This document shows positions 5,098 to 44,921 of a stretch of 64,000 bases of DNA, in pieces. A model generated the notes under the pieces. That model saw nothing but the letters and a program-made list of their open reading frames with translations, had not been told where the DNA came from and ran no database searches. The DNA is taken from NCBI RefSeq assembly GCF_009909145.1, contig NZ_JAAAPJ010000005.1:336470-400469 (forward strand), written 5' to 3'. The translations under genes were made by a program, and so were the position numbers. The DNA is from Corallococcus silvisoli. GTDB taxonomy: Bacteria > Myxococcota > Myxococcia > Myxococcales > Myxococcaceae. Positions within the stretch are counted from its first letter, which is position 1, and every line of letters starts with the position of its first letter.

Positions 5098-5318
5098 CGC
5101 CAATGCGAGAAGCGTCGGGTGCCCCCATCCGCGATAAAAGCCGGCGAGCCAGACTGTATTCTAGTCGATACTCGGCGGGAGCGCGTCCATGAGCAGCCCG
5201 TGTATGAGGCATGCTGCTGGCGGGTCGGTATTGCCCGTCCAGGTTGGTGTTTGGATTGGAAGTCGAGCGCCTGGATTTGAGGGGGAGCCGTTGCGCGCCA
5301 TCCGAGATCGGGTGCTAC

Positions 5319-6671
5319 ATGAAAACCTGGATTCGCTTCCTGGGGAGTCGCGCCACTCAACTCCGGCAGACGGTGCTGGGAGCCCTCCAAGGCTCGGGCC
5401 TCGAGATGGTGTCGCGCCCGGAGGAAGCTCCCCCTGGCCTCGGAGTGATTGTCTTCGATGAAGTGGAAGCGAACACGCTGGAAGCCGTGCGGGACTGCCG
5501 GCTGAGCCCTTCGACACGGGTCCTCGCGGTGGCCACGACGGGCCAGGGACTCGGTGAAGGGGCTTGCTGGCGGCTGCTTCAGGCGGGAGCCTCGGACGTG
5601 CTCGTCTGGGAGGGCGCGCGTGACGCGGCGGCGGAGATCGCCGCACGGCTGGAGCGCTGGCACCAGGTGGAGCGGCTCATCGAGTCGCCCGCCGTGCAAC
5701 GGCGCCTGGTGGGCCGGGCCGCCACCTGGCTCCCGGTGCTGCGCCAGCTCGTGGAGGTGGCCGCGTTCACTGACGCCTCGGTGCTGCTGCTCGGGGAGAG
5801 CGGCACCGGCAAGGAGGAGATGGCCTGTCTCATCCACGAGCTGGACATGCGCCCGGACAAGCGGGAGCTGGTGACGCTGGACTGTACGACGGTGGTGCCG
5901 GAGCTGTCGGGCAGCGAGTTCTTCGGGCATGAGCGGGGCGCCTTCACGGGAGCGACGAACACCCGAGACGGGGCCTTCGCCCTGGCCCATGGCGGGACGC
6001 TGTTCCTGGACGAGGTGGGCGAGCTGCCCCTGGCCCTCCAGGCTCAGTTGCTGCGGGTGGTGCAGGAGCGTCTGTACAAGCGCGTGGGCTCCAACACCTG
6101 GCAGCGGACGGACTTCCGGCTCGTCTGCGCCACCAACCGCGAGCTGTCCCAGCAGGTCGCCCAGGGCGGCTTCCGCCGCGACTTCTTCCACCGCATCCTG
6201 AGCTGGGTGTGCCGGCTCCCGCCCCTGCGCGAGCGACCCGAGGACATCCTCCCGCTGGCCCAGCACTTCCTCCGGTCGATGCGACCCGACATGGCGCTCG
6301 AGCTGGATCCCCACGTGCGGGAGTACCTCCTCAAGCGCAGCTACCCGGGAAACATCCGGGAGCTGCGTCAGCTCATCGGGCGCCTCTGCAAGCGGCACGT
6401 GGGCACCGGGCCCATCACCGTGGGCGACATTCCCCCCGACGAGCTCCCTTCCTCCGAAGGGCTCGGGGACTGGCAGGACGTCTCGTTCGCGCAGGCCATC
6501 CAGCGCGCCCTGTCGCTCGGGGTGGGGCTCAAGGAGATTGGCCGGAGCGCCTCGGACACGGCCATCCGGCTGGCCCTCGCCGAGGAGCAGGGCAACCTCC
6601 AACGCGCCGCCCGGCGGCTGGGCGTCACGGACCGCGCGCTCCAGCTCCGCCGGGCCCAGCGCGACGAATAG
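5319..6671 (+). CDS. Sigma-54-dependent transcriptional activator (NtrC family) with a degenerate receiver-like N-terminus
   Basis: AAA+ Walker A GESGTGKE, the sigma-54 contact motif GAFTGA, and a C-terminal Fis-type HTH (GNLQRAARRLGVTDRALQ). The N-terminal ~120 aa is receiver-like but lacks the acidic pair and the conserved Lys. Confidence 0.9.
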   Translation: MKTWIRFLGSRATQLRQTVLGALQGSGLEMVSRPEEAPPGLGVIVFDEVEANTLEAVRDCRLSPSTRVLAVATTGQGLGEGACWRLLQAGASDVLVWEGARDAAAEIAARLERWHQVERLIESPAVQRRLVGRAATWLPVLRQLVEVAAFTDASVLLLGESGTGKEEMACLIHELDMRPDKRELVTLDCTTVVPELSGSEFFGHERGAFTGATNTRDGAFALAHGGTLFLDEVGELPLALQAQLLRVVQERLYKRVGSNTWQRTDFRLVCATNRELSQQVAQGGFRRDFFHRILSWVCRLPPLRERPEDILPLAQHFLRSMRPDMALELDPHVREYLLKRSYPGNIRELRQLIGRLCKRHVGTGPITVGDIPPDELPSSEGLGDWQDVSFAQAIQRALSLGVGLKEIGRSASDTAIRLALAEEQGNLQRAARRLGVTDRALQLRRAQRDE

Positions 6672-6685
6672 CCGGAGTCATCGCC

Positions 6686-7522
6686 TCAGCATCCGCCGCC
6701 TCGGAGCGCATCGGGGGTCCAGGGGTCTCGCGGCTCTTCCTCCACCGAGGGGGCCGGGCCCTTCCAGGCAGACCTCCGCCCCAAGGGCCTTGGGCGGCAC
6801 CGGCCCATCAATCGCAGCAGGTTGCCCCCCAACACGAGCTGCCGGTCCTTCGGAGACAGCTCCAGCGCGAGCACCTTGGCCAGCTCCACCCCCGGGTGCA
6901 GCCACGGGCCATCCGAGCCGAAGAGCAGCTTGTGTGCCCCGGCCCGCTCCACCGCCTCCTCCAGCAGGTCGAAGCGGCGCACCCCAGCGGTGTCGGCGTG
7001 GACGTTGGGCAGGCGCGCCAGGAGGTCCAACAGCGCGCGCTGCGCTCGCCAGTCGTCCGCGAAGCTGCCCAGGTGCGGGATGATGAAGCTCACCTCCGGG
7101 TACTCGGTGGCGATCAACTCCACACCGGAGACTTCTCCCATCACGTCGTAGAGGATGGGCAGCGCGAAGGCCCGGGCCACCTCGCAGATCTCACGGGAGA
7201 TGCGCGCGTCGTAGCGGTGGACCTTGATGCCCCGGAAGCCGTAGCGCCGCACGGCCTCCTGGACCCGCTCGAAGACGCGCCCGCGGTCTCTCACGGCATG
7301 CACGAAGGCGAAGCCGTAGAAGCGCTCCGGGTGGCGTTTCACGAGGCGGGCCACCTGGCGATTCGCCGTGGCGTAGTCGGAGTGGAACGCGGCCAGCAGC
7401 ACCGTGCGGGAGATGCCCGCGGCGGACGCGCGCCGCAGGTAGTCCTCCAGCGGCGCGGAGGTGTCCCAGGGGCCGGTGAGCCCGTCGCCCTTCCCGGCAT
7501 GGCAATGGCAGTCGATGATCAT
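6686..7522 (-). CDS. Amidohydrolase-2 family metal-dependent hydrolase (operon gene F)
   Basis: Starts MIIDCHCH (HxH metal motif). Also GIKVH, IIPHLG and LLFGSDGPW, typical of TIM-barrel amidohydrolases. The track ORF 6686-7657 is trimmed to ATG 7522, 7 nt after the stop of gene E. Confidence 0.85.
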   Translation of the reverse strand: MIIDCHCHAGKGDGLTGPWDTSAPLEDYLRRASAAGISRTVLLAAFHSDYATANRQVARLVKRHPERFYGFAFVHAVRDRGRVFERVQEAVRRYGFRGIKVHRYDARISREICEVARAFALPILYDVMGEVSGVELIATEYPEVSFIIPHLGSFADDWRAQRALLDLLARLPNVHADTAGVRRFDLLEEAVERAGAHKLLFGSDGPWLHPGVELAKVLALELSPKDRQLVLGGNLLRLMGRCRPRPLGRRSAWKGPAPSVEEEPRDPWTPDALRGGGC

Positions 7523-7529
7523 CGTCGCG

Positions 7530-8516
7530 TCATCGGCGCTCGAACAGCTCGTAGAGCGCCTTGTCGGGGAGCGAGAGCGCGCGGTTGGCGATGCCAGGCG
7601 CCTTGGCGGCCCGGACGCCCCATGGATTCGGCGGGAGCAAGCCCTGGATGGAGACACCTCCTCTCACGCGGAACTGCCGGATGGAGCTCAGGTTGCGAAG
7701 GCGGCCCGCGGGGACGGCTCCAGAGAGCAGGAGCGCGCGGATCAGCGCATGCTCCACCGCCCTGCGAGCCTGTCGGGTGTTGGGCTGAATCGTCCCGAAC
7801 CAGACCGTGATGGGCTTGGGCAGCAGCCCCCCCTTCTGGGTGAGCCCCATCTGGTAGAGGCTCAGCAGGCGTCCTCGCCAGCGCCCCTGGAAGCTGTCCG
7901 TCTCGCCCACGTAGAGGGGAAGCCCCTCCTCCTCCACGACGTACAAGCCACCTCCGGCGGGAAGCGCGGAGAACGGGTGGCGATCAATCTTCCGCACCGA
8001 CCAGGAGAGGACCTTCGCGGTGACGGGGCCCCGCTGTGCCTCGAGCTCCTGCGACTCCGCGGGAGGGGGCCCGTCCTGCCCGGGCGGAGCGTCCGAGGGT
8101 TCCTCGGGAGGCGCCACATCCGGCGGCGGCTGCGCCGCGGCCACCGGCTCGACGCTGTCGGGAGGGGGCTCGTTCAGGGCCGGCTGGTAGAGCGGGTAGC
8201 CGTACGGCCCTCCGCCGTAGACCACCCAGGGGCGGCCCCTCGGCCACCGCCGCCCCGGCCTCGGCCCCTGCCCCTGCCCCTGCCCCTGCCCGGGGCTCCG
8301 CCACGCACGGGCCGGTCTCGAACCCGAACGCCAGACCTGCGCCCGGGGGACGCCCATCATCCCGCGTCCGACCCCGAACCGCCTCGCGCCGGGCTGGAGT
8401 GCACGAGCGCGGCGCGCAGGTGGCGCACGGAAGGACCGCGCGAAGTGGCCCTCCTCTTCGCCTTCCCACTCGGACTCCAACGCGTCTTCGCTCTCGTTCT
8501 CGTACCACTCATTCAT
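7530..8516 (-). CDS. Hypothetical protein: acidic head, Arg-rich/GQ-repeat segment, Pro-rich linker, GIY-YIG-like C-terminal domain (operon gene E)
   Basis: N-terminus MNEWYENESEDALESEWEGEEEG, followed by about 18 Arg with no acidic residues. The C-terminal half contains GLYVVEEEGLPLYVGETDSFQGRWRGRL...AVEHALI, resembling GIY-x8-YxG-R...E. Start overlaps the gene D stop (ATGAATGA). Confidence 0.75.
   Translation of the reverse strand: MNEWYENESEDALESEWEGEEEGHFARSFRAPPARRARALQPGARRFGVGRGMMGVPRAQVWRSGSRPARAWRSPGQGQGQGQGPRPGRRWPRGRPWVVYGGGPYGYPLYQPALNEPPPDSVEPVAAAQPPPDVAPPEEPSDAPPGQDGPPPAESQELEAQRGPVTAKVLSWSVRKIDRHPFSALPAGGGLYVVEEEGLPLYVGETDSFQGRWRGRLLSLYQMGLTQKGGLLPKPITVWFGTIQPNTRQARRAVEHALIRALLLSGAVPAGRLRNLSSIRQFRVRGGVSIQGLLPPNPWGVRAAKAPGIANRALSLPDKALYELFERR
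8265..8291 (-). repeat. Hexanucleotide tandem repeat (cccctg x4.5) encoding (GQ)4
   Basis: Read directly from the sequence. In frame within gene E. Confidence 0.9.
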
Positions 8517-9594
8517 GACGTGTCCTCCGCTGCTGCCTTCCGTCGACGGCTTCCACCAGCGCCTCCACTGCGTGAGTCAGCTCCTCCGCGCCGTGCCGCG
8601 CGGTGAGGATGAAGCTCACCGACACCTCCGGACCGCAGCGCGAGCGCTGGAGCACGGTCCGGATGCCACGCCGGTGCAGCCGCTCGTGGACCGCTCGCGG
8701 GTTCACCCCGCGAGGAAGCTGGATCCGCTGCACCGGGAACCGCCCGCCCACCGAGGCCAACCCCGACCGCCGCAGCCGCCCCCGGAAGTGCGCCACCCGC
8801 AGCGCCAGCGCCTCCCGGAGCGCGTCGCCTTTCCGGCGATTGATGGCCACCGCGTGCTCGGCGGCATGGAGATCCGCCACCGAAGGTGGACTGCAATGCA
8901 TCCGCGTCTCGCTGCGCTCCTCGTACCTGGCCACCACCCGCGCGCCGCCGGCCATCAGCGCCATCGGCACACCCAAGGCCTTCGCCATCGAGCCGCACCA
9001 CAGGACATCTGGCCCGTGGATGCCGTACCAGCGCAGCGAACCCCCTCCGCCGGCTCCGTATGGCAGGCCGGGCCCCGGCATGCCGAACACTCCCAAGGCT
9101 TGGGTGTCGTCCAGGATGAGCAGGCCCCCATGGGCCCGGACCACCTCCAGGTACGCGTCGAGCGGCGCCAGCGCGCCGCAGCCCGGACACCAACCGTCGC
9201 AGACCACCACCGGCCGGAGCCCCTGGCGCGGCGCCCGTGCCAGGAGCCTCGCCAGGGCCTCGGGCGAATGATGGGGAAAGCTCCTCACGGGTCCGCCGCG
9301 CGCCACCACCCGCTCGAACCCCCACCGCACCACCGGGTAGCTGCCTTCATCCCAGTAGAGGGCCACGGGGCGCCCCGCGAGCGCTCCGAACACGTCCCAG
9401 AACAGGTGCAGCGTGGAGCGGGCGAACAGCCCCCGCTCGCAGCCCACCAGCTCCGCCAGGGCGCGTGACGTCTCTTGCGTTCCGGGGGGCTCCTCGAGGA
9501 TGGCCGGAGTGCCCAGGGTGAGCCGCTCCCACGGCGCGAGCGATCCGCTGGAGTGCTCCAGGCCCAGGTAGAGCGCGGAGGTGAAGTCGAGCAC
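8509..9594 (-). CDS. 8-amino-7-oxononanoate synthase-like PLP-dependent acyltransferase, divergent active site (operon gene D)
   Basis: N-terminal LDFTSALYLGLEHS (compare DFxSNDYLGL). DDTQALGVFG stands where the family has DDAHGxG. Lys is retained in GSMAKALG. GTG start with GGGGGA 9 nt upstream. Confidence 0.8.
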   Translation of the reverse strand: MLDFTSALYLGLEHSSGSLAPWERLTLGTPAILEEPPGTQETSRALAELVGCERGLFARSTLHLFWDVFGALAGRPVALYWDEGSYPVVRWGFERVVARGGPVRSFPHHSPEALARLLARAPRQGLRPVVVCDGWCPGCGALAPLDAYLEVVRAHGGLLILDDTQALGVFGMPGPGLPYGAGGGGSLRWYGIHGPDVLWCGSMAKALGVPMALMAGGARVVARYEERSETRMHCSPPSVADLHAAEHAVAINRRKGDALREALALRVAHFRGRLRRSGLASVGGRFPVQRIQLPRGVNPRAVHERLHRRGIRTVLQRSRCGPEVSVSFILTARHGAEELTHAVEALVEAVDGRQQRRTRHE

Positions 9595-9609: not shown

Positions 9610-11466
9610 TCACCGCCTCCGCTGCAGGGCCAGCCGGTTGCGCAGGTGCACCGAGGGGGACACGTAGCGCTCCGCCAGGCGCTGCTGGTCGGTGATGTCG
9701 ACCGCGAGGTCCACGCCGGTGACGGCCCGGTACGCGTGGATGTAGCCCTGGATCTCCGGCCGCCAGTAGCGCGCCCAGTTGGCGGCCTGGTTCGGGTCGT
9801 TCGTGATGCTCCACGCGCCGTAGCGCACGGCCAGGAGCACCTGCTCGCCGTAGACGGCGAGGTCGTGGAAGTGCACCACGCTGACGTCCGTCCACCCCAG
9901 GAGCGACTTCATCGCATCCACCCGGTCCATCCACGGCTCCGGGTAGGGCACCATCACCCGCCCGCCGAGGAACTCGCGCATCTCCGGGCGCGACAGCAGC
10001 CACTGCTGCATCAGCATCTCCTGGCGCGCGGTGGAGGGCATGTCTCCGAACTGGTTATGGGCCCCCTGCGCCAGCAGGTAGTGCGTCTCCTTGAGCGAGT
10101 TGAGCACCGGGAAGCCGTCCGACACCACGGTGGTGTCATCGTCCTGCCGGAAGAACTGCACGCATTGGTGGAGCAGGTTGTGGAAGGACTCGAGGAACTT
10201 CGAGCGCCGATCCGCGGTGCGCATCCCGGACACGGCCTTGCCGTGCAGCGTGAAGCCATATTCGTGGTCGTACTCGTGGGCGCGGCGCACGACGCTCAGC
10301 CGGTGCTGCTCGTCCTGGAGGTAGCCCCACAACACGTTGTTGAGGGGCCGCAGCGGATCGATCTCCATGTTCGCCAGCGGATCCCGGTCCCCGGGCCCGC
10401 GCACGTTCTGGAAGCGATTGCTGATGTAGTTCATCGCCTGGACCAGCATTCCCTCCTCGTGCCAGTAGTTCCAGATGAGCTCCAGGAAGGTGGGGTAGCC
10501 CAGCTTCTGCTGGAGGATGCCGTAGCAAGCGGCGTAGTCGTCCTCCGGAATGTTCCGAGGCGCGATGACCGGCACGTCGGGGAGCTTGTTGCGGATGATC
10601 GCCAGGTAGGGGAGCGCGACATCGGCGCTTCCGTTCACATCCTCCAGGTAGTGCTTCCACACGACCTCGAAGTCGAAATCGCGAGGAAGCGTCTGGCCGA
10701 GGCGACCGCCCTCCACGCGCGCGTCCAGCTTGTCCAGCAGCTCCGTGAAGTCCACCAGCACGCCCGTGCGCTCCAGCATGAAGGCCTCGGTCAGGGCCTT
10801 CAGCTTCCGGTAGGCATCCACGCCAGGGAATGGCAGCCGGAGCTTGGGCTTGCGGATCGGGGTCGGCCTGCCCGGGCCCGGCAGGCCCGTGCCCGGGTCC
10901 GTCATGTGGTCGGGCGGGCAGAGGTGTGCGTCGATGAACCGGCTGTATTGATCGAAGGAGAGCCAATCGGTGGTCTTGCGGATGACCATCCAGAGGATGA
11001 CGTCGGTCGTCAGCGGATGAAGGGTGCGCTGCAGCGCCACGGGGAGGACAGGCATGCGTCCAGCCGCGCCGAAGGAGTTGAGCTCGTTGAGCGCTTCGCG
11101 CACCACCTCCCGGACGTTCCTGTCGCCCTCTCCCGGGAGGAGGGTCAGCGACTGTTCGGCTTCCCAGGTGAACGCGGGCCTGGTGGAGCCCGCCCCTTCG
11201 AACTCCTCGAGGATGACCTTGGCCTTGAGGACGCCCGCGCGCCTCGAGCTGGGAATCGTCCAGGTCGCGTGGCCATTGAGCTCCTGCCTGTCCGCGCTGG
11301 ACTTGGAGACCGGGGGTTCGACGCTGCCGGCCTCCACGGACCATCTGTAGACCCGATGCGTGAGCTTCGGGTTCACGTGGACGGGGGACGCCGACAGTTC
11401 GACGGTGGCACCCGAAGCGCTCGAGGTGACGGTGGTGGGTGAGAGAGTGAGTGTGACGCCAGCCAT
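9610..11466 (-). CDS. Large hypothetical protein, 618 aa, no recognisable domain (operon gene C)
   Basis: High GC3. ATG 11466 is preceded by GGAGGA (the track ORF starts at TTG 11481). N-terminal ~110 aa is beta-rich, followed by a long helical region (FLELIWNYWHEEGMLVQAMNYISNRF, HEYDHEYGF). Confidence 0.8.
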   Translation of the reverse strand: MAGVTLTLSPTTVTSSASGATVELSASPVHVNPKLTHRVYRWSVEAGSVEPPVSKSSADRQELNGHATWTIPSSRRAGVLKAKVILEEFEGAGSTRPAFTWEAEQSLTLLPGEGDRNVREVVREALNELNSFGAAGRMPVLPVALQRTLHPLTTDVILWMVIRKTTDWLSFDQYSRFIDAHLCPPDHMTDPGTGLPGPGRPTPIRKPKLRLPFPGVDAYRKLKALTEAFMLERTGVLVDFTELLDKLDARVEGGRLGQTLPRDFDFEVVWKHYLEDVNGSADVALPYLAIIRNKLPDVPVIAPRNIPEDDYAACYGILQQKLGYPTFLELIWNYWHEEGMLVQAMNYISNRFQNVRGPGDRDPLANMEIDPLRPLNNVLWGYLQDEQHRLSVVRRAHEYDHEYGFTLHGKAVSGMRTADRRSKFLESFHNLLHQCVQFFRQDDDTTVVSDGFPVLNSLKETHYLLAQGAHNQFGDMPSTARQEMLMQQWLLSRPEMREFLGGRVMVPYPEPWMDRVDAMKSLLGWTDVSVVHFHDLAVYGEQVLLAVRYGAWSITNDPNQAANWARYWRPEIQGYIHAYRAVTGVDLAVDITDQQRLAERYVSPSVHLRNRLALQRRR

Positions 11467-11483
11467 GATTCCATCCTCCAACG

Positions 11484-12827
11484 CTAGGTGACGACGTTCC
11501 GCGGCAACGCGGGAGCCCGGAGCACCGACGCCAGGGTCCGCGACTTCGAGAGTGACGCGCAGGTCTCGGACGCATCGAGCGTGCTGCGCAGGGCCCAGTA
11601 CTTGAGGAGCTCGGCCAGGGCCTTGCTCTCCTCCTCGGGAGTGATGGCCCCGTCGGCCCTGGCCTGCCCGATGACGGCGAACACCAGCGAGGGCGGCGAC
11701 TCACGAATGCGGGAGCGCCGGGCGCGCCACTCCCGGTACAGCTCGGAGAGCCGGTCTGGCTGACGCTCCCGCGTCTTCATGACCTCCACCAGCGTGCGTC
11801 CACGAAGGGACTCCGGCCGGTGCTCCACCAGGAGCCGCGCGATGCGCGGCAGGCTCGCCTCGAGCGCGCCGAGCACCCGGCGGTGCTGCTCGGACAGTCC
11901 GTCGATGGGGTAGAACGCCTTCCACAGTCGCGCCAGCCGCGCCCACTGCGGATGCGGATACAGCAGTCCGCCCAGCGCGCTGCTCAGCTTGACGCGGATC
12001 CACGGGATGGGATGGGGGTCGTCCATGTTCAGCCGGAACACGAACGGCCGCGGCAGGCTCACCACCCCCATCAGCCCCACCGTGGCGGTCACCCCCACGC
12101 GAGCCACCGACCAGAAATCCGCGACGACCTCCGAGATCCACCGCTCCCACAGGCCCCAGACCAGCGCGTCCTCGGGCCCTTCACGCGGCACGTCGCGCAG
12201 GGCCACGCGGAGCGAGGCCACCAGGTCCAGCAGCGCCGCCCCCTGGTGCCCCACCTCGTGGAAGAGGGAGGACGCGAGGCTGCTGCCGATCATCCGCTCG
12301 CGGGGGACGCGGATGATGGCCACCGGGTTCGCCCCGCCGCCGGGCAGACGCGTGCGCGCCCGGCGGATGGCCGCTCCGGGGCCGCGAGCCAGGTAGCAGA
12401 TGACGGGCGGCGCCTCGTAGTACCCCGGCAGCTCCAGCGCGTTCTTGGAGAGCACGTCCAGCCCCGCCAGCCAGACGCCGTTGTCCGCCTCGCTGCGCTG
12501 GCTCATGGCCTCGCTGAAGATGTCGAACTGCGACAGCACCACGTTGAAGCGCAGCCGCAGGAAGGTGAAGCGCCGCTGCGCCTCGGCGGGGGCCGCGTGT
12601 CGGCCCCAGGGGCCCTCCAACCACGCGAGGTACTGGTGGATCTGCGTCCGTAGCTCACGGCGCCCCTTGACCAGGTAGCTCTCCAACGCCGCCTGCGCTT
12701 CGACGGAGAGCGTGGCCGCTGGGACCATCGTCTCCGACATGGCGAAGGACTTGATGCGCTCGAGCCGGGTGAGCAGCGCGCGGGCCTCCTGTGACAGCAT
12801 CCAGGAGGCGAAGGAGCCGGAGGACAT
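11484..12827 (-). CDS. Hypothetical protein with a single HExxH zinc-metalloprotease motif (operon gene B)
   Basis: SLFHEVGHQGAALLDL is the only recognisable motif. Starts 6 nt after the gene A stop. Confidence 0.75.
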   Translation of the reverse strand: MSSGSFASWMLSQEARALLTRLERIKSFAMSETMVPAATLSVEAQAALESYLVKGRRELRTQIHQYLAWLEGPWGRHAAPAEAQRRFTFLRLRFNVVLSQFDIFSEAMSQRSEADNGVWLAGLDVLSKNALELPGYYEAPPVICYLARGPGAAIRRARTRLPGGGANPVAIIRVPRERMIGSSLASSLFHEVGHQGAALLDLVASLRVALRDVPREGPEDALVWGLWERWISEVVADFWSVARVGVTATVGLMGVVSLPRPFVFRLNMDDPHPIPWIRVKLSSALGGLLYPHPQWARLARLWKAFYPIDGLSEQHRRVLGALEASLPRIARLLVEHRPESLRGRTLVEVMKTRERQPDRLSELYREWRARRSRIRESPPSLVFAVIGQARADGAITPEEESKALAELLKYWALRSTLDASETCASLSKSRTLASVLRAPALPRNVVT

Positions 12828-12833
12828 GGTGGC

Positions 12834-13463
12834 TCAGACCCCGTAGAGGATGATCTTGTTGCCCTTGCGCACCCAGCGGCCACTGCGGCCACCGGTGCCC
12901 GCGGCGTGCGGCATCTGGGCGGCGAAGCCAGGGGCGAACTTCTGGATGGCCTGGTGGACGGCGGCGCCAGCCACCTGCTGGGGCGAAGCATTGTCGGGCG
13001 AGTTGAGGGCCGTCTTGGAGGCGTCCGAGGCGAGTCGGACAATCTGCCGGGCCACCTCGAACTCGCGGTCCTCCTGGCTCAGGCCCTCCAGTTCGAGCCC
13101 GAACGCCTGGCCCGCCATGGAGGCCAGCTTGCCACCGACGGCGCCGCCCACGCCGGGGACCACGAGGTTGCCGAGCGCGCTGCCCACCATCGGCAGGGCC
13201 TGCCTGGCCAGTCCCTTGAGCATGCCCCCGAGCTGCTTGCCCAGCGGAGACTTCACGACCTTGCCGACGGCGCTGCCCACCTTCTTGATGATGTTGCCGA
13301 GGAACTGATCCAGCTCCTGCTCGTTGCTGACCTCCAGCAGCTCCGAGGCGAGCTCGTTCAGCTCGTTCTCGTTGAAGACCTCGCCCCACTCCGACTCGGC
13401 GTTGAACTCGAACTCGAACGACTCCCCCTCCAGTTCCTGGTAGGTGCGATCCACGTCATGCAT
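12834..13463 (-). CDS. 209-aa protein with an acidic head and a cationic Gly/Lys-rich core (operon gene A)
   Basis: ATG 13463 preceded by GAGGAA. The track ORF 12834-13712 is trimmed because its upstream part is Arg/Pro/Ala-rich junk. Residues 1-54 carry 15 Glu, 3 Asp and 1 Arg. Residues 55-122 carry 7 Lys, 1 Arg, 16 Gly and no acidic residues. C-terminus is GRWVRKGNKIILYGV. Confidence 0.8.
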   Translation of the reverse strand: MHDVDRTYQELEGESFEFEFNAESEWGEVFNENELNELASELLEVSNEQELDQFLGNIIKKVGSAVGKVVKSPLGKQLGGMLKGLARQALPMVGSALGNLVVPGVGGAVGGKLASMAGQAFGLELEGLSQEDREFEVARQIVRLASDASKTALNSPDNASPQQVAGAAVHQAIQKFAPGFAAQMPHAAGTGGRSGRWVRKGNKIILYGV

Positions 13464-13520
13464 GGTCAGTTCCTCGTGTGATGGGGCCGGCTTCGTGGCC
13501 GCGGGTTCGGACCGGGCATA

Positions 13521-13536
13521 AGCAGCGGCTGTGCCA
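13521..13536 (-). promoter_or_regulatory. Sigma-54 (-24/-12) promoter candidate for the six-gene operon
   Basis: Minus strand reads TGGCACAGCCGCTGCT against the consensus TGGCACG-N4-TTGCW. GG and GC have correct spacing. The -12 element is about 58 nt upstream of ATG 13463. No other correctly placed TGGCAC/GC pair was found in the window. Confidence 0.6.
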
Positions 13537-13581
13537 ACCCCGCCGAGGGTCGCTCCTGCTCTGGGAGTCAGGGCGCGGGAG

Positions 13582-13639
13582 CGAAGCGCGCTTCGGCGGC
13601 GCCGGCCGAACGGGAGATTCGGCGAAGCAGGCTTCGGCG
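13582..13639. promoter_or_regulatory. Candidate upstream activator sites: perfect palindrome plus TTCGGCG repeats
   Basis: CGAAGCGCGCTTCG (13582-13595) is a perfect 14-bp palindrome. TTCGGCG occurs at 13592, 13618 and 13633, with an inverted GCCGAA at 13605. The sites lie about 45-105 bp upstream of the -24 element. Confidence 0.3.
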
Positions 13640-13766
13640 CCCCGTCATGGCCCCGTGGGCTCCGGGCGAGTCCCCCCCCTGGCGAGGGCATTCGTCCCCT
13701 CGCCGTCGCCATTCGCGGGGCCGTCGGCTAGCGTTCGGCCCTCTCCGCGGAACAAGAGGGGGGCCC

Positions 13767-16040
13767 ATGCGCGTCGTACCGTCCATCCTGGAATCCGTCA
13801 CCGTTCACGCCGAAGGCGCGCTGTGCACCCGCGCGCTCGTGCTCTCCCCCGAGGACGGGCACCTGCCCGAACAGGTCCGCGTCGACGGCCTGCCCCTGGC
13901 CCTGCGAACAGCGACCCTGCGCGCCCGCGTGGTGGAGGGCCCCACCGGGCTCCTCGTCCGCGACCTGCGGCCCACGTTCGACGTGCGGCTGCCCGCCGAA
14001 TCGGACCTGCCCGCGGAGCTGCACGCGGCCGAAGCGGCGGAGGCCGCGCTGTCGGACGTGCTGGGCCGGCTGGAGCGGGTGCGCGCGGAGCTGGAGACCC
14101 TTCAGGGACTGGCGCCCTCCTTCCCGCCCCAGCGCAAGGGCCAGCTCCCGCGCGAGGCGCCCCTCGCCGCGATGCTGGCGCTGACGGGCTTCGTGGACGC
14201 GGAGCTGACGGCGCTGCATGCCCAGCGGCTGGAGCTGGAGCGGCAGTACCGCGACGCCACCCAAGAGCTGGAGCTGCGCCGCCGCCGCGTCCAGGAGCTG
14301 TCCTCCGCGCGAAGCGTGGACCGGGCCCGGCTCTTCCGCGCGGCCCTCCTCACGCTGTCCGGCCCCATCGCCGCGAACGCGGAGGCGCGCCTGGTGTTGG
14401 AGTACGCCGTGGCGGGCGCGCGATGGGTGCCCACCTACGACCTGCGCCTGCCGCGCACGCTGGAGGAAGGCACGCTGCGCATGCGTGCCGCCGTCATCCA
14501 GCGGACCGGCGAGGACTGGAAGGGGGTCCGGCTGTCGGTCTCCACCGCGAGCCTGGAGCGGCGCGCGGTGGTGCCGGAGCTGAAGTCGCTGCGCATCGGC
14601 CGCAGCCAGCCGGCGCCCGTGCGCTCGGGATGGCGTGAGCCCGCGCCGGGCCTGGACGAGCTGTTCGCGGGCTACGACGCCATGACGGTGCCGCCCCCTC
14701 TCGCGATGCCCGAGCCTCTTCCGCCCCCTCCGATGGACGAGCTGGACGCGGATGAGGACTCGTTCGGGAGCGTGGTGGCCTTCGAGGAGTCCTTGAAGGA
14801 GAAGTCGCCGAAGGCGATGTCGTCCTCGTATGGGGGCGCGCCGGGCGCTCCGCCCATGGCGCCCCCTTCCGTCTCCCGGCCCGCGCCGCCGCCCATGCCG
14901 GCTCCCAAGGCCGCGGCCCCCGCGCTGGGCGGAGTCCGCCCGTCGGCGGCCCCGAGCCGGAACCTCAGCGACGGCGGAGACCTCAGCCGGAGTTTCCGGC
15001 GGGATGCCCCGGGCCGGGGCGGCGGCGGGATGAGCAAGAAGCGCGCGGCCGAGGAGGAGAGCCTCGATGATGCCCCGATGATGGACCTGTCATCGGACCT
15101 CTCGGACGGCGAGGGCGGCGGCGGGGAGTCGCGGCGCACGAGGGCCCTGGAGCCCGCGGACAGCCTGTTCGACTACGACTCGCTGACGCTGGCCCCTCCG
15201 GGCGCTCCAGCCGAGCGCGGCCGGCTGACGCCCCGGCCGGCGCTCATCACGCAGGCGAGGCTGTCCGTCACTTCCGTGAGTCTCCAGGTCGAAGTGGTGC
15301 GCCTGGAGGCCCAGGCCTTCGTCACCGCCGAGTCCGTGAACACCGTGCCGCCGCCCACGTGGGCGGTGGCGCCGCGCGACTCCGCCCGGCACTTCGACGC
15401 GCGCTTCGACGCGGAGGCGGTCGCGGACGTGCCCGCCGACGGCGCGTGGCACACGGTGCCCATGCTGACGGTGCCCCTGGAGTTCCGCGCCGAATACGTC
15501 TGCGTGCCTTCGGTGGAGCCGCGGGTCTTCCGCACGGTGCGCCTGGACAATCGGACACCGCACCCGCTGCTCGCGGGGCCCGTGGACGTGACGCTCGGGG
15601 ATGAGTTCCTGATGACCTCTCCGCTGCCCACGCTCGGGCCCGGCGAGACGCAGCGGCTGGGATTGGGCGTGGAGGAAGCGATCCAGGTGGCGCGCAACAC
15701 GCGCTTCGAGGAAGCGACGGGCGGCATGTTCGGCAACAACACCGTCCTCACGCACCACGTCTCCGTGGAGGTGACCAACCACCTCGCGCGTCCCGCGACG
15801 CTCGCCATCTCCGAGCGCATCGGCGCGGTGCCCGAGTCCCAGAAGGACCTCAAGGTCGAGGAGGCGGAGGTCATCCCGCCCTGGCAGAAGCCCACGCCCC
15901 TGCCCGGAGAGGTCGCGGTGGAGGGCGAGCGGGTCTGGCGCATGAGCATGCCCGCCGGAGAGAAGCGTTCGATGAAGGCGACATGGGTCGTGAAGCTGCC
16001 CGGCAACAAGATGCTGTACGGCGGGAACCGGAGGACATGA
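13767..16040 (+). CDS. DUF4139 (mucoidy inhibitor MuiA-like) family protein with a ~150-aa Pro/Ala/Gly-rich insertion
   Basis: Hallmark ARWVPTYDLRLP...AAVIQRTGEDWKGVRLSVSTAS. ATG 13767 preceded by AAGAGGGGGG. Low-complexity insertion at about 14640-15190. Confidence 0.8.
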   Translation: MRVVPSILESVTVHAEGALCTRALVLSPEDGHLPEQVRVDGLPLALRTATLRARVVEGPTGLLVRDLRPTFDVRLPAESDLPAELHAAEAAEAALSDVLGRLERVRAELETLQGLAPSFPPQRKGQLPREAPLAAMLALTGFVDAELTALHAQRLELERQYRDATQELELRRRRVQELSSARSVDRARLFRAALLTLSGPIAANAEARLVLEYAVAGARWVPTYDLRLPRTLEEGTLRMRAAVIQRTGEDWKGVRLSVSTASLERRAVVPELKSLRIGRSQPAPVRSGWREPAPGLDELFAGYDAMTVPPPLAMPEPLPPPPMDELDADEDSFGSVVAFEESLKEKSPKAMSSSYGGAPGAPPMAPPSVSRPAPPPMPAPKAAAPALGGVRPSAAPSRNLSDGGDLSRSFRRDAPGRGGGGMSKKRAAEEESLDDAPMMDLSSDLSDGEGGGGESRRTRALEPADSLFDYDSLTLAPPGAPAERGRLTPRPALITQARLSVTSVSLQVEVVRLEAQAFVTAESVNTVPPPTWAVAPRDSARHFDARFDAEAVADVPADGAWHTVPMLTVPLEFRAEYVCVPSVEPRVFRTVRLDNRTPHPLLAGPVDVTLGDEFLMTSPLPTLGPGETQRLGLGVEEAIQVARNTRFEEATGGMFGNNTVLTHHVSVEVTNHLARPATLAISERIGAVPESQKDLKVEEAEVIPPWQKPTPLPGEVAVEGERVWRMSMPAGEKRSMKATWVVKLPGNKMLYGGNRRT

Positions 16041-17599
16041 TGCGCACTTCCATTCTGTTGCCCCTGGTCAAGGTGACGGTCCTGGAGGACCGGGCCCTCA
16101 TCGAGCGCACCGGCGAGGTGACGCTGCCTCCGGGCCCGTGCCGCCTCGCGGTGGACGGCCTGCCGGCGGTGGCCGTGGACCGCTCGCTTCAAGCGAAGCT
16201 CTCAGGTGGCGTGGTGACCCAGGCCAGCCTGCGCCGCTCGATGCGCGCGGTGCTCCCGGAGGCCCTGCGCGAACACGCCACGGAGCTGGCCCGCCGCGCC
16301 TTCGAGCGCGAGCAGGAGCTGGAGCGCGCGCAGGCGGAGGTCGGTCGCCTGGAGACGCGGCGCGACCTGCTGGAGGCCGCGCGGACCGAGGTCTTCCGCG
16401 CCATCAGCGAGCGCACCGGCGCGGGCGAGGCGGATCCGACGCGCTGGAAGGAACAGCTCGAAACGCTGCGCAAGGAGCAGGCCGCGACGGACGACACGCT
16501 CTGGCAGGCCCGGCGCTCCGCGGCGCGCCTCCAACGCCAGCATGAGCAGGAGACCCGCGAGGTGCTGGCGCGCACGGCTCCCGCCGAGCCCACGGTGGAC
16601 GTGCGCGCGGAGCTGGACGTGAGCCACGCGACGGGCGGGCCGGTGACGTTGACGCTGACGTACCTGGTGCCCTGCGCCGCATGGCGGCCCGCGTATCGCG
16701 CGGCCCTGAGCCTCGCGGACGAGGGCTCGACGGTGGCGTTGGAGTGCGAGGCCGTCGTCTGGCAGAACACGGGCGAGGCCTGGAAGGACGTGACGCTGGC
16801 CTTCTCCACGGCGCGCCCCACGCTGGGTGCCACGCCCCCCAGGCTCGAGGAGGACTGGCTGTCCCTGCGGGACAAGACAGCGCGAGAGAAGCAGGTGGTG
16901 GAGGTCTCCGTCCGCGAGGAGTCCATCCAGACGACCGGCGAGGCCGGGACCTCGAAGGCCGCGGATGCGCTGCCCGGCATGGACGACGGCGGAGCGCCGG
17001 TGACGCTGTCCACGCCCCACAAGGTCACGGTGCCGTCGGACGGCGAGGCGCACCGCGTGGCGCTGTTCGCGTTCACGGCGCCCGCGACGTCGGAGCTGGT
17101 GGCCTGCCCGGAGCAGTCGCCGCTGGTGCACCGGGTGGCGCGGTTCGCCAACACGGGGCCGACGGTGCTGATGGCCGGGCCGGTGGACCTGGTGCGCTCG
17201 AAGGGCTACGTGGGCCGCGCGCAGCTCAAGTTCGCGGGCCGGGGCGAGCGCGTGAAGCTGGGCTTCGGCAGCGAGGACTCGCTGCGCGTGTCACGGCAGG
17301 CGGAGTCGAGCGAGGAGGTCGCGCGCATCACCAGCCGGCGCACGAACACGGAGCGGGTGAAGCTGTTCGTCTCCAACATGGGGGCGATGCCGGCGAACCT
17401 GGTGGTGGAGGAGCGCATGCCGGTGTCCGAGGTGGAGGCCGTGGAGGTGGCGCTGCTCAAGGACGCCACGAAGCCCGCGCCCACGAAGGTGAGCGACGAC
17501 GGCATCGTGCGCTTCGAGTTGAACGTCCCGCCGCGCTCCCGGCAGACGGTGTCCTTCGGCTTCACGGTGGCCCGCTCCGGGAAGGTCTCGGGCCTGTAG
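16037..17599 (+). CDS. DUF4139 (MuiA-like) family protein, paralog of the upstream gene
   Basis: AAWRPAYRAALSL...AVVWQNTGEAWKDVTLAFSTARP. Its ATG overlaps the upstream TGA (ATGA). Confidence 0.8.
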   Translation: MMRTSILLPLVKVTVLEDRALIERTGEVTLPPGPCRLAVDGLPAVAVDRSLQAKLSGGVVTQASLRRSMRAVLPEALREHATELARRAFEREQELERAQAEVGRLETRRDLLEAARTEVFRAISERTGAGEADPTRWKEQLETLRKEQAATDDTLWQARRSAARLQRQHEQETREVLARTAPAEPTVDVRAELDVSHATGGPVTLTLTYLVPCAAWRPAYRAALSLADEGSTVALECEAVVWQNTGEAWKDVTLAFSTARPTLGATPPRLEEDWLSLRDKTAREKQVVEVSVREESIQTTGEAGTSKAADALPGMDDGGAPVTLSTPHKVTVPSDGEAHRVALFAFTAPATSELVACPEQSPLVHRVARFANTGPTVLMAGPVDLVRSKGYVGRAQLKFAGRGERVKLGFGSEDSLRVSRQAESSEEVARITSRRTNTERVKLFVSNMGAMPANLVVEERMPVSEVEAVEVALLKDATKPAPTKVSDDGIVRFELNVPPRSRQTVSFGFTVARSGKVSGL

Positions 17600-33775: not shown

Positions 33776-33982
33776 CACCCGACGCCCCCCTGGGTGCGAG
33801 GAACCCCGGGCACCCGTTCCGGGTGAACCGGGCCGTTGGCTTTCGTGCATCGCTTGGGATGTGGGCCTCCGAGCGGATGCACGAAAGCCAACGCGCGTCC
33901 ACGAGGTGGCCGGACGGGCAGGTTCCGTTCTCACCGGCAGTGCCAATCCATCGAGGTCCCTGGCGGACGAACGAGGGCTGGC

Positions 33983-36433
33983 ATGGACGGAGTTCGAGGA
34001 GCGACAGCGGTCTTGCTCGCGTGCGCGGGGCTGTGGGCTCCGGGCGCCGCGTGGGCCCAGGCCCCCGGCGAGGACGAAGCCAGCGACGTGATGTCGGAGG
34101 AGAAGCTGGAGGCCCTGCTGGACACGCCGACGGCGCAGCCTACCCAGGACGAGGTGACGGCGGAGGCGTTTGGACCGGAGCGGCTGACGTCCTACTTCGC
34201 GCAGGGACTGCTCGCGAAGGCGCGCGCGGAGTTCGACCGGGGCCGCTACCGGTCCGCGCGGGCGCTGCTCGCCACCGAATCCCCCCCTTCCCTTCCGGGC
34301 CGCTACCTCCAGGCCCAGAGCGCCTTCCTCGCGCGCGACTTCGCCACCGCCGCCGAGGAGTTCACCGCGCTGGCGGAGGACTATGTGCCCCTGCGCGACC
34401 ACTGCCTGATGCGGGCCGCCGAGTCCCATGAGCGCCTGCACAAGCCGCTGCGCGCGGCGGAGCAGTACGGCGCGGTGAGTCCGGCCTCGCCGCTCTATCC
34501 GGAGGCGCGCTTCACCCTGGCGCGCGTGCTCAAGCGCCAGAACCGCATCCCCGAGGCGCTGACCGCGCTCCAGGCCCTCATCGACAGCCGGCAGGCGCGG
34601 GGGCCGGACGCGCTCCGGATGAAGGCGCTGCTGGCGTACTGCGACCTGGCGCGCGCGCAGGGGCAGTACAACGCCGAGCACCGCGCGCTGCTGGAGGTCT
34701 GGGCGACGGCGCCCCTGTCGCCCGAGGCGGCCCGCGCGCGCGTGCTGCTGCGGGATCTGCCGCTGCCCATGAAGTGGCGGGTGCGCCGCGCCGAGGCGCT
34801 GGTGGAGCTGCACCAGAACGTCGCGGCCATGAACCTGCTGGCCCGTTCGGGGCCGCGGACGGAGCTCCCGGACGAGCTGGCCTGCGGCGCCCAGCTCACC
34901 CTGGGCCGCGCGCTGCGCAAGGAGCGGCAGCACCGGCGCGCCATCCAGGTGCTGGAGCCGGTGGCGCGCGAGTGCCTGTCCCCCGAGCAGCGCCCGCAGG
35001 CGCTCTACCTCCTCGCGTATTCGCAGTCGGTGGTGCAGCCGGAGGCGGCCGTGGACACGTACGCCACGCTGGCCCGGGACTACCCGGCGCACGGCTACGC
35101 GGACGACGCGCTGTTCTTCGAGGCGTGGACGCAGCAGCGCCTGGGGCTCGTGGACGAGGCGCTCCAGAACTACGAGGCGCTGGCGAAGCAATACCCCGCC
35201 GGCAACTTCGCCGCCGAGGCCCTCTTCCGCGCCTTCTGGCTGCACCAGCGCAAGGGCGAGACGCAGCCCGCGCTCGCGTCGCTGATGGCGGTGGAGCAGC
35301 TGCCGGAAGCGGCGCGCACCGACGAAGCCCTGTGGCGCGCCCGCTACTGGCAGGCGCGCGTGCAGGAGTCCGGCGGCGCGGTGGACGCGGCGCTCACGCG
35401 CTACGAGCTCATCGCCACCGAGCGGCCCACGGCCTGGTACGGCCTGCTCGCCCGGACGCGGCTCGCGCAGCACGCGCCGGAGCGGATGGCCCGCCTGACG
35501 GCGGCGTCCGCCGCACCGAAGGCCACGTCCATCCCGAACACCGCCGGGCCCGTCACCGACGAGGTCTGGCCCCTGCCCCCGGGCCCGCTCCAGAAGGACC
35601 CGCGCTTCGCCGCGGGCGTGGAGCTCTTGCGCCTGGGCCAGCCAGGCGTGGTGGAGGAGCTGCTCGCGGTGGACACGCGCGGCCTGGCGGAGGCGCCCGC
35701 GCGGCTGCTCTACCAGACGATGCGCCGCACCGGGCGGGGCCGGGCCACGCGGCAGGTGGCGCGCGTGTCGCTTCGCCAGGAGGCCGCCGGGCCGCTGAGC
35801 GCCGCGTCGCGCCCGGTGTGGGAGGCCACGTGGCCGCTCGCGTTCCGGCCGCTCATCCAGAGCTCTTCGCGGTCAGCGCGAGTGGATCCCGATCTGCTCC
35901 AGGGCCTCATCCGCGAGGAGAGCCGCTTCAACCCGCGCGCGCGCTCCGCCACGGGAGCGCTGGGACTGGCGCAGCTCATGCCCTCGACGGCGCGCCAGGT
36001 GGCGGACTCGCTGAAGATGGCCTCGTTCGACGTGTCCTCGCTGCTTCAGCCCGCGCCGAACATCCGCCTGGGCGCGGCGTACCTGGGGCAGTTGCTCAAG
36101 CACTTCGACGGCAACCCCGCCTACGCCGTGGCCGCGTACAACGCGGGACCCGCGGCCGTGGAGCGCTGGCGCCGGGCCCTGCCCCAGGCGGAGCTGGACG
36201 AGTGGGTGGAGCACATCGCCTTCGACGAGACCCGCGACTACGTGAAGCGCGTCCTGGGCAGCTACAGCGCCTACAAGCTGCTCTACGCGAACGAAGTGCC
36301 CGCGTCGTTCCAGAAGGCCCACAAGGCCCCCCTGGAGGCCGCGCGCGCGCCCACGGTGAGCCCCGCGACGGGCACCGGCGGCAGCGGCAGGAACGCGGTG
36401 ACGCCGACGTCCACCCTGTCTGGCGGACGGTAG
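33983..36433 (+). CDS. Soluble lytic murein transglycosylase (Slt70-like)
   Basis: Signal peptide MDGVRGATAVLLACAGLWAPGAAWA. Long helical-repeat N-terminal region. Catalytic motifs EESRFNPRARSATGALGLAQLMP and AYNAGP. Confidence 0.88.
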   Translation: MDGVRGATAVLLACAGLWAPGAAWAQAPGEDEASDVMSEEKLEALLDTPTAQPTQDEVTAEAFGPERLTSYFAQGLLAKARAEFDRGRYRSARALLATESPPSLPGRYLQAQSAFLARDFATAAEEFTALAEDYVPLRDHCLMRAAESHERLHKPLRAAEQYGAVSPASPLYPEARFTLARVLKRQNRIPEALTALQALIDSRQARGPDALRMKALLAYCDLARAQGQYNAEHRALLEVWATAPLSPEAARARVLLRDLPLPMKWRVRRAEALVELHQNVAAMNLLARSGPRTELPDELACGAQLTLGRALRKERQHRRAIQVLEPVARECLSPEQRPQALYLLAYSQSVVQPEAAVDTYATLARDYPAHGYADDALFFEAWTQQRLGLVDEALQNYEALAKQYPAGNFAAEALFRAFWLHQRKGETQPALASLMAVEQLPEAARTDEALWRARYWQARVQESGGAVDAALTRYELIATERPTAWYGLLARTRLAQHAPERMARLTAASAAPKATSIPNTAGPVTDEVWPLPPGPLQKDPRFAAGVELLRLGQPGVVEELLAVDTRGLAEAPARLLYQTMRRTGRGRATRQVARVSLRQEAAGPLSAASRPVWEATWPLAFRPLIQSSSRSARVDPDLLQGLIREESRFNPRARSATGALGLAQLMPSTARQVADSLKMASFDVSSLLQPAPNIRLGAAYLGQLLKHFDGNPAYAVAAYNAGPAAVERWRRALPQAELDEWVEHIAFDETRDYVKRVLGSYSAYKLLYANEVPASFQKAHKAPLEAARAPTVSPATGTGGSGRNAVTPTSTLSGGR

Positions 36434-41070: not shown

Positions 41071-41192
41071 CGGCACTGGCGAATCTCTCCAGGTAGGGTA
41101 CTCACTCGCGCGCCACGGGAGTGCCACACCTCGCGCCTCTCCTCCTCCCGCGGCGGACCTCGCCTGGCCCTCCAGGCGCCGAGGGAGAATCC

Positions 41193-44702: not shown

Positions 44703-44921
44703 GTTTCAAAGATCTATCAGCAGCGCCCCCCGACGAGATAGGTCCTGCCGGGTCGTCCGCTGACACCGGAAACACGCGGAGTGCGTCGCGGCCCGCGGAG
44801 ATCCTTTGCCACTGCCCGGACTCCGGGTGATTCTCGGCGAACGGAGGGGGCCGCGGTCCGGCAGAGGCAACCGCGAACGGGCGCGGGGCGTTCCTTCCGT
44901 GCCCTCGTCCGGAGCGCACGC

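Follow-up and report, generated by a model that had tools for sequence, protein, structure and literature searches.

The stretch analyzed here (the window, 64,000 nt of the Corallococcus silvisoli contig NZ_JAAAPJ010000005.1) carries on its reverse strand a series of genes, A to F, that converges with a gene for a sigma-54 enhancer-binding protein. Gene A (12834..13463), the first of the operon, encodes 209 amino acids plus a stop codon, and translation of positions 13463..12834 on that strand returned exactly the protein that an earlier, sequence-only reading of this DNA had compared to a charge-neutralized pro-peptide, an acidic pro-region placed before a cationic Gly/Lys peptide. The ATG of gene B stands 6 nt past the gene A stop codon. 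A longer open reading frame (ORF) in the same frame (292 amino acids, 12834-13712; GC content at third codon positions, 0.86) was set aside as the extent of gene A. The ATG at 13463 is preferred because M1 and H2 are invariant among homologues, because the Shine-Dalgarno sequence GAGGA (read at 13471..13475, reverse strand) lies 7 nt before it and because a sigma-54 type −24/−12 promoter element, TGGCACAGCCGCTGC, lies upstream (13522..13536, reverse strand; 3′ end 58 nt and 5′ end 73 nt from the ATG). Only one other near-consensus sigma-54 element occurs in the window (TGGCACTCCCGTGGC, 41112-41126, reverse strand).

Script counts gave 15 Glu, 3 Asp and 1 Arg in gene A residues 1-54 (net −17) and 7 Lys, 1 Arg, 16 Gly and no Asp or Glu in residues 55-122 (net +8), in exact agreement with the counts of the sequence-only reading. 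Homologues of gene A are numerous: a word-indexed search returned 1760 at E ≤ 1e-3, and a profile search of 1.84 billion representatives returned 2376 clusters at 50% identity, with 45-60% identity retained across phyla. The charge pattern travels with the family. Mean net charge over 172 single-module homologues is −17.8 in the N region and +7.0 in the core, and 98% of them keep the split (counted as kept where an N region of −8 or lower accompanies a core of +4 or higher). A more negative N region tends to go with a more positive core (Spearman r = −0.48, p = 2.5e-11, from sequences that are not independent phylogenetically), and Lys positions in the core drift across homologues while its net charge is maintained. 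Relatives with several modules repeat the acidic-then-cationic order in each of them. Judged from these comparisons, the split is a real, charge-compensated property of the family that is under selection. Residues 55-72 reach a helical hydrophobic moment of 0.65 (cecropin A, 0.66; magainin 2, 0.51), which puts the start of the core on a par with classical helical antimicrobial peptides in amphipathicity, and the core as a whole contains 7 GxxxG motifs, where 3.3 are expected from shuffled sequences (p about 0.02). Two of the checks proposed with the sequence-only reading, amphipathicity and conservation of the bipartition among homologues, came out in its favor.

Gene A can be divided into six parts, all encoded on the reverse strand. 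Residues 1-30 (13374..13463) open with an invariant MHDxDRT, after which comes a variable tail of acidic and aromatic character, ESFEFEFNAESEWGE, for which disorder is predicted. Residues 31-54 (13302..13373) form two acidic helices, ELNELASELLEVSNEQELDQF, belonging to the folded module. The cationic Gly-rich core (residues 55-122, 13098..13301) consists of the amphipathic helix 55-72 and a hydrophobic, GxxxG-rich stretch at 84-121. It is followed by the best-conserved stretch of the family, residues 123-140 (13044..13097; LELEGLSQEDREFEVARQ, pattern LELEGLSxEDxEFE), by two further module helices and a variable linker (residues 141-193, 12885..13043) and by a basic C-terminal beta-hairpin tag (residues 194-209, 12837..12884; SGRWVRKGNKIILYGV, pattern GRWxRxGxxIxLxG). 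An AlphaFold2 model built from a 36-sequence alignment (predicted local distance difference test [pLDDT] 75.6; predicted template modeling score [pTM] 0.67) places a helical domain at about residues 30-180, with helices at 32-44, 48-63, 73-93, 108-121, 130-153 and 161-176, mostly at a pLDDT of about 90. Residues 12-26 fall below 50 and are predicted to be disordered, and a low-confidence linker leads into the hairpin (strands 196-200 and 203-207). The beta-strand-like character that had been read into the basic C-terminus is borne out by the model. Because of these predicted helices, residues 31-54, about half of the supposed pro-region, share a predicted domain with the Gly/Lys core; the core is accordingly better seen as part of a repeatable module than as the independent peptide unit first imagined.

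Conservation within gene A is uneven, with consensus frequencies of 0.83 for residues 1-7, 0.50 for 8-30, 0.86 for 123-140 and 0.30 for the linker 181-193, so that the acidic tail (8-30) and the linker are its least conserved parts. Across the family the N-terminal tail is 24-103 residues long, with a mean net charge of −10.2. Homologue alignment identified A39, L43, E50 and F54 as invariant within residues 31-54, G56, L82, L90, G94, P103, G104 and G106 within the core, L123, E124, E126, G127, L128, E131 and E136 within 123-140, and G195, R196, W197 and G208 within the tag. The Gly, Ala, Leu and Pro residues of the core that stay invariant across phyla are what would be expected for tight helix packing. 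Many relatives contain two to four tandem modules joined by low-complexity linkers (range across the family, 1-4 copies) and close with a single GRWxRxGxxIxLxG hairpin. Loci commonly have additional A paralogues, up to three of them in tandem; some of the downstream copies have a Cys-rich N-terminus (MHxxxCxCxxC). Tandem or Cys-rich paralogues occur at L031:2214-4528, L020:9929-11338, L046:16200-16931 and L063:16181-16828 of the related loci. As had been noted from the sequence, gene A has no signal peptide; its N-terminus is acidic (MHDVDRTYQELEGES) and lacks a hydrophobic stretch, and the Kyte-Doolittle maximum of the protein is 1.36.

Gene A matched no Pfam family at E ≤ 0.1, no NCBIfam family and no PADLOC entry, and the precomputed Pfam column was empty in 120/120 homologues. 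Pfam glycine-zipper families, DUF697 and DUF937 were not matched either, and the DUF697 and DUF937 labels carried by A homologues in JGI and UniRef only were not reproduced by direct comparison. PHROGs gave marginal matches (E = 9e-4) to tape-measure proteins, in their glycine-rich parts. Sequence and profile searches of the PDB with A, B and C returned designed helical repeats or no match, and a known-fold search with the gene A model found nothing specific. The suggestion that gene A might equally be a phasin-like or structural protein found no backing, as there is neither a Pfam match nor a polyhydroxyalkanoate gene nearby. A precursor of a peptide made by the ribosome and modified after translation (RiPP), a candidate raised by the tandem A paralogues and neighboring enzymes, is unlikely, as the whole protein is conserved and shows no hypervariable core.

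Gene B (11484..12827, reverse strand) encodes an all-alpha protein of 447 amino acids with the HExxH sequence HEVGH at residues 190-194 (nt 12246-12260), followed by E233 and D237; this is the HExxH protein that the sequence-only reading had placed just downstream of gene A. H190, E191, H194, E233 and D237 are invariant in 36 aligned B sequences from several phyla, giving the HExxH plus downstream Glu pattern of zincin (gluzincin) metallopeptidases. More than 5700 homologues were found, with 63-70% identity between Myxococcota, Nitrospira, Chloroflexota and Proteobacteria. The predicted structure (pLDDT 82.7) sets two strands ahead of the helix with HExxH and puts E233 on the helix after it, an arrangement also seen in zincins; the model is compatible with a zincin without being proof of one.

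The remaining members of the operon are more varied. Gene C (9610..11481, reverse strand; 623 amino acids, likely start ATG at 11466) joins a variable N-terminus to a C-terminal domain, about 470 residues long, that is highly conserved (45-60% identity in alignment), and it has no Pfam, NCBIfam, PADLOC or PDB match. All of its homologues are annotated as hypothetical apart from records misnamed 8-amino-7-oxononanoate synthase (such naming is carried by C homologues P0399, P0441 and P0515). A fusion of C and D was rejected, as the Aggregicoccus “8-amino-7-oxononanoate synthase” is a C homologue without similarity to D; because P0399 shows no similarity to the pyridoxal phosphate (PLP) enzyme D, the name is an annotation error carried over from the neighboring gene. 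Gene D itself (8509..9594, reverse strand) is a BioF/Kbl-like PLP-dependent enzyme (Pfam Aminotran_1_2, 1.1e-9; TIGR00858, 1.8e-16, under its curated cutoff). Gene E (7530..8516, reverse strand) has an acidic N-terminus (NEWYENESEDALESEWEGEEEG, including ESEWEGEEEG), a long low-complexity linker rich in Arg, Pro and Gly and a C-terminal GIY-YIG-like domain (motif GLYVV...LYVGET), and it is weakly homologous to a GIY-YIG-matching protein of locus L046. Gene F (6686..7657, reverse strand) belongs to the Amidohydro_2 family (Pfam, 4.6e-23), its true start probably lying downstream of 7657; because gene E and the longest gene F ORF overlap by 128 nt, one of the two start codons is probably misplaced. 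The sigma-54 enhancer-binding protein (5211..6671, forward strand, convergent with the operon) has an AAA+ core (Pfam Sigma54_activat, 2.2e-53) and HTH_8; its first 160 residues are unassigned, and a search with the N-terminal 165 residues gave no convincing structural relative.

To establish the distribution of this cluster, related loci were collected from homologue look-ups and from a scan of one genome per GTDB species. At least 391 genomes with a relative were returned, and 80 loci from these were fetched. Carriers belong to at least 11 phyla in all, including Myxococcota, Nitrospirota, Methylomirabilota, Acidobacteriota, Bacteroidota, Planctomycetota, Verrucomicrobiota, Chloroflexota, Desulfobacterota and the Alpha-, Beta- and Gammaproteobacteria, and comprise Nitrosomonas, Bradyrhizobium, Variovorax, Thauera, Caballeronia and Methylococcales among others. 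The cluster is found in nitrifiers, methanotrophs and rhizobia, and mostly in non-predatory bacteria, which argues against the predation-specific effector first proposed from its occurrence in a myxobacterium. By tblastn across 85 loci, the order A-B-C is the same in every locus long enough to tell, and most loci also carry D, F and the convergent sigma-54 activator at the same position; the arrangement in the window is A, B, C, D, E, F plus activator. A strict sigma-54 motif (TGGC[ACT][CTG]-N5-[CT]TGC, within 220 nt upstream of an A-family ORF) was present in 38/86 loci, with about 1.5 expected because the background is 0.077 per kb. This excess, together with the activator encoded in the cluster, indicates that the operon depends on sigma-54 and brings its own activator; A to F and the activator form a self-contained sigma-54-dependent operon. 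Gene A was absent from IMG/VR viral contigs and gene B from phage records, and among listed plasmids gene B was confined to four large rhizobial or Paraburkholderia replicons, leading us to reject a phage or plasmid origin of the cluster. Full-text searching found no description of the cluster in the literature (most subscription journals lie outside its coverage).

The related loci contain one to four extra, variable genes, placed after C or D and before F or the activator, and 104 of these were scanned against Pfam. Peptidoglycan-binding and peptidase domains were prominent: PG_binding_1 was matched in 36/104, PG_binding_3 and Peptidase_M20 in 12/104 each, OmpA in 10/104, Amidase_2 and trypsin-like domains in 5/104 each, VanY and DUF2272 in 4/104 each (the DUF2272 region of one member also being weakly CHAP) and GIY-YIG in 3/104. 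Single cases of glucosaminidase, Rv2525c-like glycosidase, M23, M15_4, PLD and PIN were also found. No signal peptide was seen in any variable-gene protein inspected. Half of the variable genes have an acidic N-terminal 20-residue window (net −7 or lower), compared with 5% of 502 flanking controls, and the motif F-E-x-x-P-F-E occurs at residues 6-31 in 16/104 (at 6-15 in 14 of them) compared with 3/430 controls, typically followed by E-aromatic-x-RRG and an Arg/Pro-rich linker. Gene E is the member of this variable, cargo-like set in the window. The N-terminus of the A family is related in kind, being acidic and aromatic (for example, EY-x-PE...FE-x-x-QFE). The form M-x(4-5)-F-E-x-x-P-F-E heads unrelated enzymes, including trypsin-like and PG_binding_1 proteins, and looks like a system-specific leader (examples include L005:12926, L026:15367, L029:5394, L031:8967, L043:18332 and L057:10343). 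The GRW hairpin was likewise found outside gene A. While C-terminal in 80 A-family proteins of related loci, it is N-terminal in an Amidase_2/PG_binding_1/OmpA protein, an Rv2525c-like glycosidase and a 612-residue protein, and internal in one PG_binding_1 protein. Because it also stands near the N-terminus of, or inside, peptidoglycan hydrolases, the hairpin behaves as a portable tag. In the form GRWxRxGxxIVL the hairpin ends every A-family protein, and outside the family it lies at L032:17373-19643, L032:15508-17343, L075:18190-19206 and L008:8204-9274 (reverse strand).

As the charge split is conserved, the first core helix is amphipathic and the neighboring gene B is obligate with an invariant HExxH...E, a membrane-active protein unmasked by a protease is the leading idea for gene A. 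We offer it tentatively: gene A may be a membrane-active protein masked by charge, working within a release or lysis system that a protease gates. Gene A would be made in the cytoplasm in a soluble, charge-masked form, from which the zinc-metallopeptidase-like gene B product would remove, or in which it would remodel, the acidic N-terminal part; gene B might act likewise on the co-encoded enzymes that have a similar acidic leader and an abrupt switch to Arg-rich sequence. Once unmasked, the cationic amphipathic helix and the glycine-zipper segment of A would insert into the membrane, which would give the signal-less peptidoglycan-binding hydrolases and toxin-like enzymes a path to the cell wall, with release or lysis as the outcome. 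The leader in common and the portable hairpin tag would serve to hold these proteins together or to direct them to B or C. The broader proposal, that A-B-C is the core of an unrecognized sigma-54-triggered release or delivery system of diderm bacteria in which A, as a glycine-zipper protein unmasked by a protease, breaches the membrane while the acidic leader (F-E-x-x-P-F-E type) and the basic hairpin tag address polymorphic signal-less cell-wall hydrolases and toxins to it, is conceivable and somewhat more speculative still. From the sequence-only reading, charge masking and the HExxH neighbor are retained here, and the antimicrobial-peptide precursor and the predation-specific effector are not.

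Several observations weigh against unmasking and membrane insertion. The whole gene A protein is net −7 (family mean, −8), and because it stays negative the acidic part over-compensates the core rather than neutralizing it. No segment of gene A is of transmembrane grade, the top 19-residue Kyte-Doolittle mean, noted above, falling at residues 92-110. The model predicts that the Gly-rich region lies buried within a soluble domain of helices, so that helix packing could be all that the amphipathicity of the core reflects. Gene A evolves as slowly as B and C, as would fit a protein whose partners inside the cell are fixed. Gene B matched no known peptidase family or fold in Pfam, NCBIfam, PADLOC, PDB or fold searches, and because of this its protease activity is deduced from the motif alone. 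The sole variable gene of the window, E, is GIY-YIG-like and not a wall hydrolase, and C, D and F are left without an explained role.

A credible alternative, though one we would not bet on, is that gene A is a non-lytic scaffold, adaptor or chaperone that is neither cleaved nor inserted into a membrane. Its helical module would be a stable cytoplasmic domain, and its acidic tail and basic hairpin tag would serve for docking, either assembling A paralogues and the enzymes that bear tag or leader (as a complex or a particle) or holding Arg-rich lytic enzymes inactive. The confident predicted helical fold that takes in the Gly-rich part, the one to four tandem modules with a single terminal tag, the tandem paralogues (up to three per locus), the tag and leader common to A and the cargo-like enzymes, and the slow divergence of A, like that of B and C, are all consistent with a scaffold. 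However, a scaffold leaves the invariant HExxH partner unaccounted for, as well as the conserved cationic charge and its compensation, and no known scaffold fold was matched. Alternatively, the cluster could be a cargo or loading island for an extracellular contractile injection system (eCIS) or type VI secretion system (T6SS) encoded elsewhere, with the disordered acidic N-termini as loading sequences and A as an abundant cargo or loading factor. In one Nitrospiraceae locus (L003:1-6523) the cluster directly adjoins eCIS genes (VgrG-like, tube, gp19, sheath and Pvc16), and the variable genes resemble antibacterial effectors. The N-terminus of known eCIS cargos holds a disordered loading sequence that is specific to the system, often with a DUF4157 domain after it (bioRxiv 10.64898/2026.05.27.728243); here, too, a disordered N-terminal sequence is common to otherwise different enzymes and an HExxH protein is associated. 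Yet an eCIS homologue within about 10 kb is lacking in 84/85 loci, a scan of ten other large ORFs of the window revealed neither an eCIS or T6SS domain nor any other component of an injection or secretion system, gene B has no DUF4157 match in a Pfam scan, the cluster has its own sigma-54 regulator, and neither A nor B was met in the viral contigs and phage records given above. A loading island is, on balance, unlikely.

It is less likely again that the cluster serves wall turnover, necromass catabolism or envelope-stress repair, with A as a PspA-like membrane-stress or regulatory protein. Sigma-54 control by an activator without a recognizable receiver domain recalls the psp system, A is helical and about 210 residues long, and M20 peptidases, Amidase_2, Amidohydro_2 and the PLP enzyme together could process muropeptides. 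Against this, the cluster contains no transporters, the trypsin-like, PLD, GIY-YIG and PIN domains look toxin-like rather than catabolic, and comparison of gene A with PspA/IM30 gave neither a PspA/ESCRT-III-like fold nor a hidden Markov model match. The least probable of the explanations considered, and a very doubtful one, is the one from which the analysis departed: a secreted antimicrobial-peptide precursor from which B cuts the acidic pro-region, freeing residues of about 55-122 for predation. An anionic propiece joined to a cationic peptide is the design of the precursors of eukaryotic antimicrobial peptides such as magainin, dermaseptin and the defensins. Gene A resembles these in its acidic region placed before a cationic, amphipathic Gly/Lys region of compensating charge, in its obligate neighbor B and in its multi-module relatives, which recall multi-copy precursors. 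It differs in being bacterial and cytoplasmic, in lacking a signal peptide and in having no exporter dedicated to it within the cluster. The cationic part, far from diverging rapidly, is among the better-conserved parts of the protein, is highly conserved across phyla and lies inside a predicted domain of 150 residues that also takes in residues 31-54 and 123-180, and the bacteria that carry the cluster are mostly not predators.

The proposal of a protease-gated, membrane-active gene A can also be set beside other known systems. In cecropin-type helix-hinge-helix fashion, gene A has a cationic amphipathic helix, a Ser-Pro/Gly hinge and then a more hydrophobic, Gly/Ala/Val-rich helix; the segment is without sequence homology to cecropins and, unlike them, forms part of a larger protein. 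Among membrane proteins and toxins with glycine zippers are Pfam Gly-zipper families, Caulobacter CdzC/CdzD and the T6SS effectors Tse4 and Ssp6. Gene A shares with them GxxxG repeats in a moderately hydrophobic stretch, but its hydropathy is under the transmembrane threshold, its architecture and operon are different and, as stated, no such family was matched. Bacterial gasdermins are auto-inhibited, protease-gated pore formers encoded beside a protease. The likeness is conceptual only, an auto-inhibited membrane-active protein beside a protease; gene A has no sequence or fold similarity to gasdermins, and its masking segment is N-terminal and acidic. Holin-endolysin cassettes and the holin/peptidoglycan-hydrolase-dependent “type 10” secretion systems pair a membrane protein with wall hydrolases, and in the present cluster signal-less Amidase_2, VanY/M15, glucosaminidase and M23 proteins likewise stand beside a small candidate membrane-active protein. 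Unlike a holin, gene A has, by hydropathy, not one transmembrane helix; the cluster is not found in phages, it is under sigma-54 regulation, and nothing in such cassettes corresponds to B, C, D or F. By analogy, gene A comes closest in its working to the pro-form of a membrane-active protein of the cationic amphipathic or glycine-zipper kind, and the cluster to holin/hydrolase release cassettes or leader-addressed effector sets.

Genes A, B and C are universally linked, match no known family, retain 45-70% identity over at least 11 phyla and have their own sigma-54 switch. The peptidoglycan hydrolases and toxin-like enzymes that accompany them have no known exit from the cytoplasm, yet share two short addressing motifs with A. 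If A-B-C were a release, lysis or delivery machine, it would open to environmental bacteria a novel route for their antibacterial enzymes and would add two new portable protein tags; even if A were a cytoplasmic scaffold, the analysis would have defined a new protein family of large size and a regulon that can be tested.

Divergent from gene A lie two consecutive DUF4139/DUF4140 (MuiA-family) genes (13647-16040 and 15983-17599, forward strand), the first with a long Pro/Ala/Gly-rich insert; in other genomes the pair lies outside the conserved cluster. Elsewhere in the window are ordinary myxobacterial genes for a TPR plus SLT lytic transglycosylase (33836-36433, forward strand), a radical SAM protein (44781-46337, forward strand) and a 1430-residue adenylate/guanylate cyclase plus AAA_16 protein (47217-51509, reverse strand).

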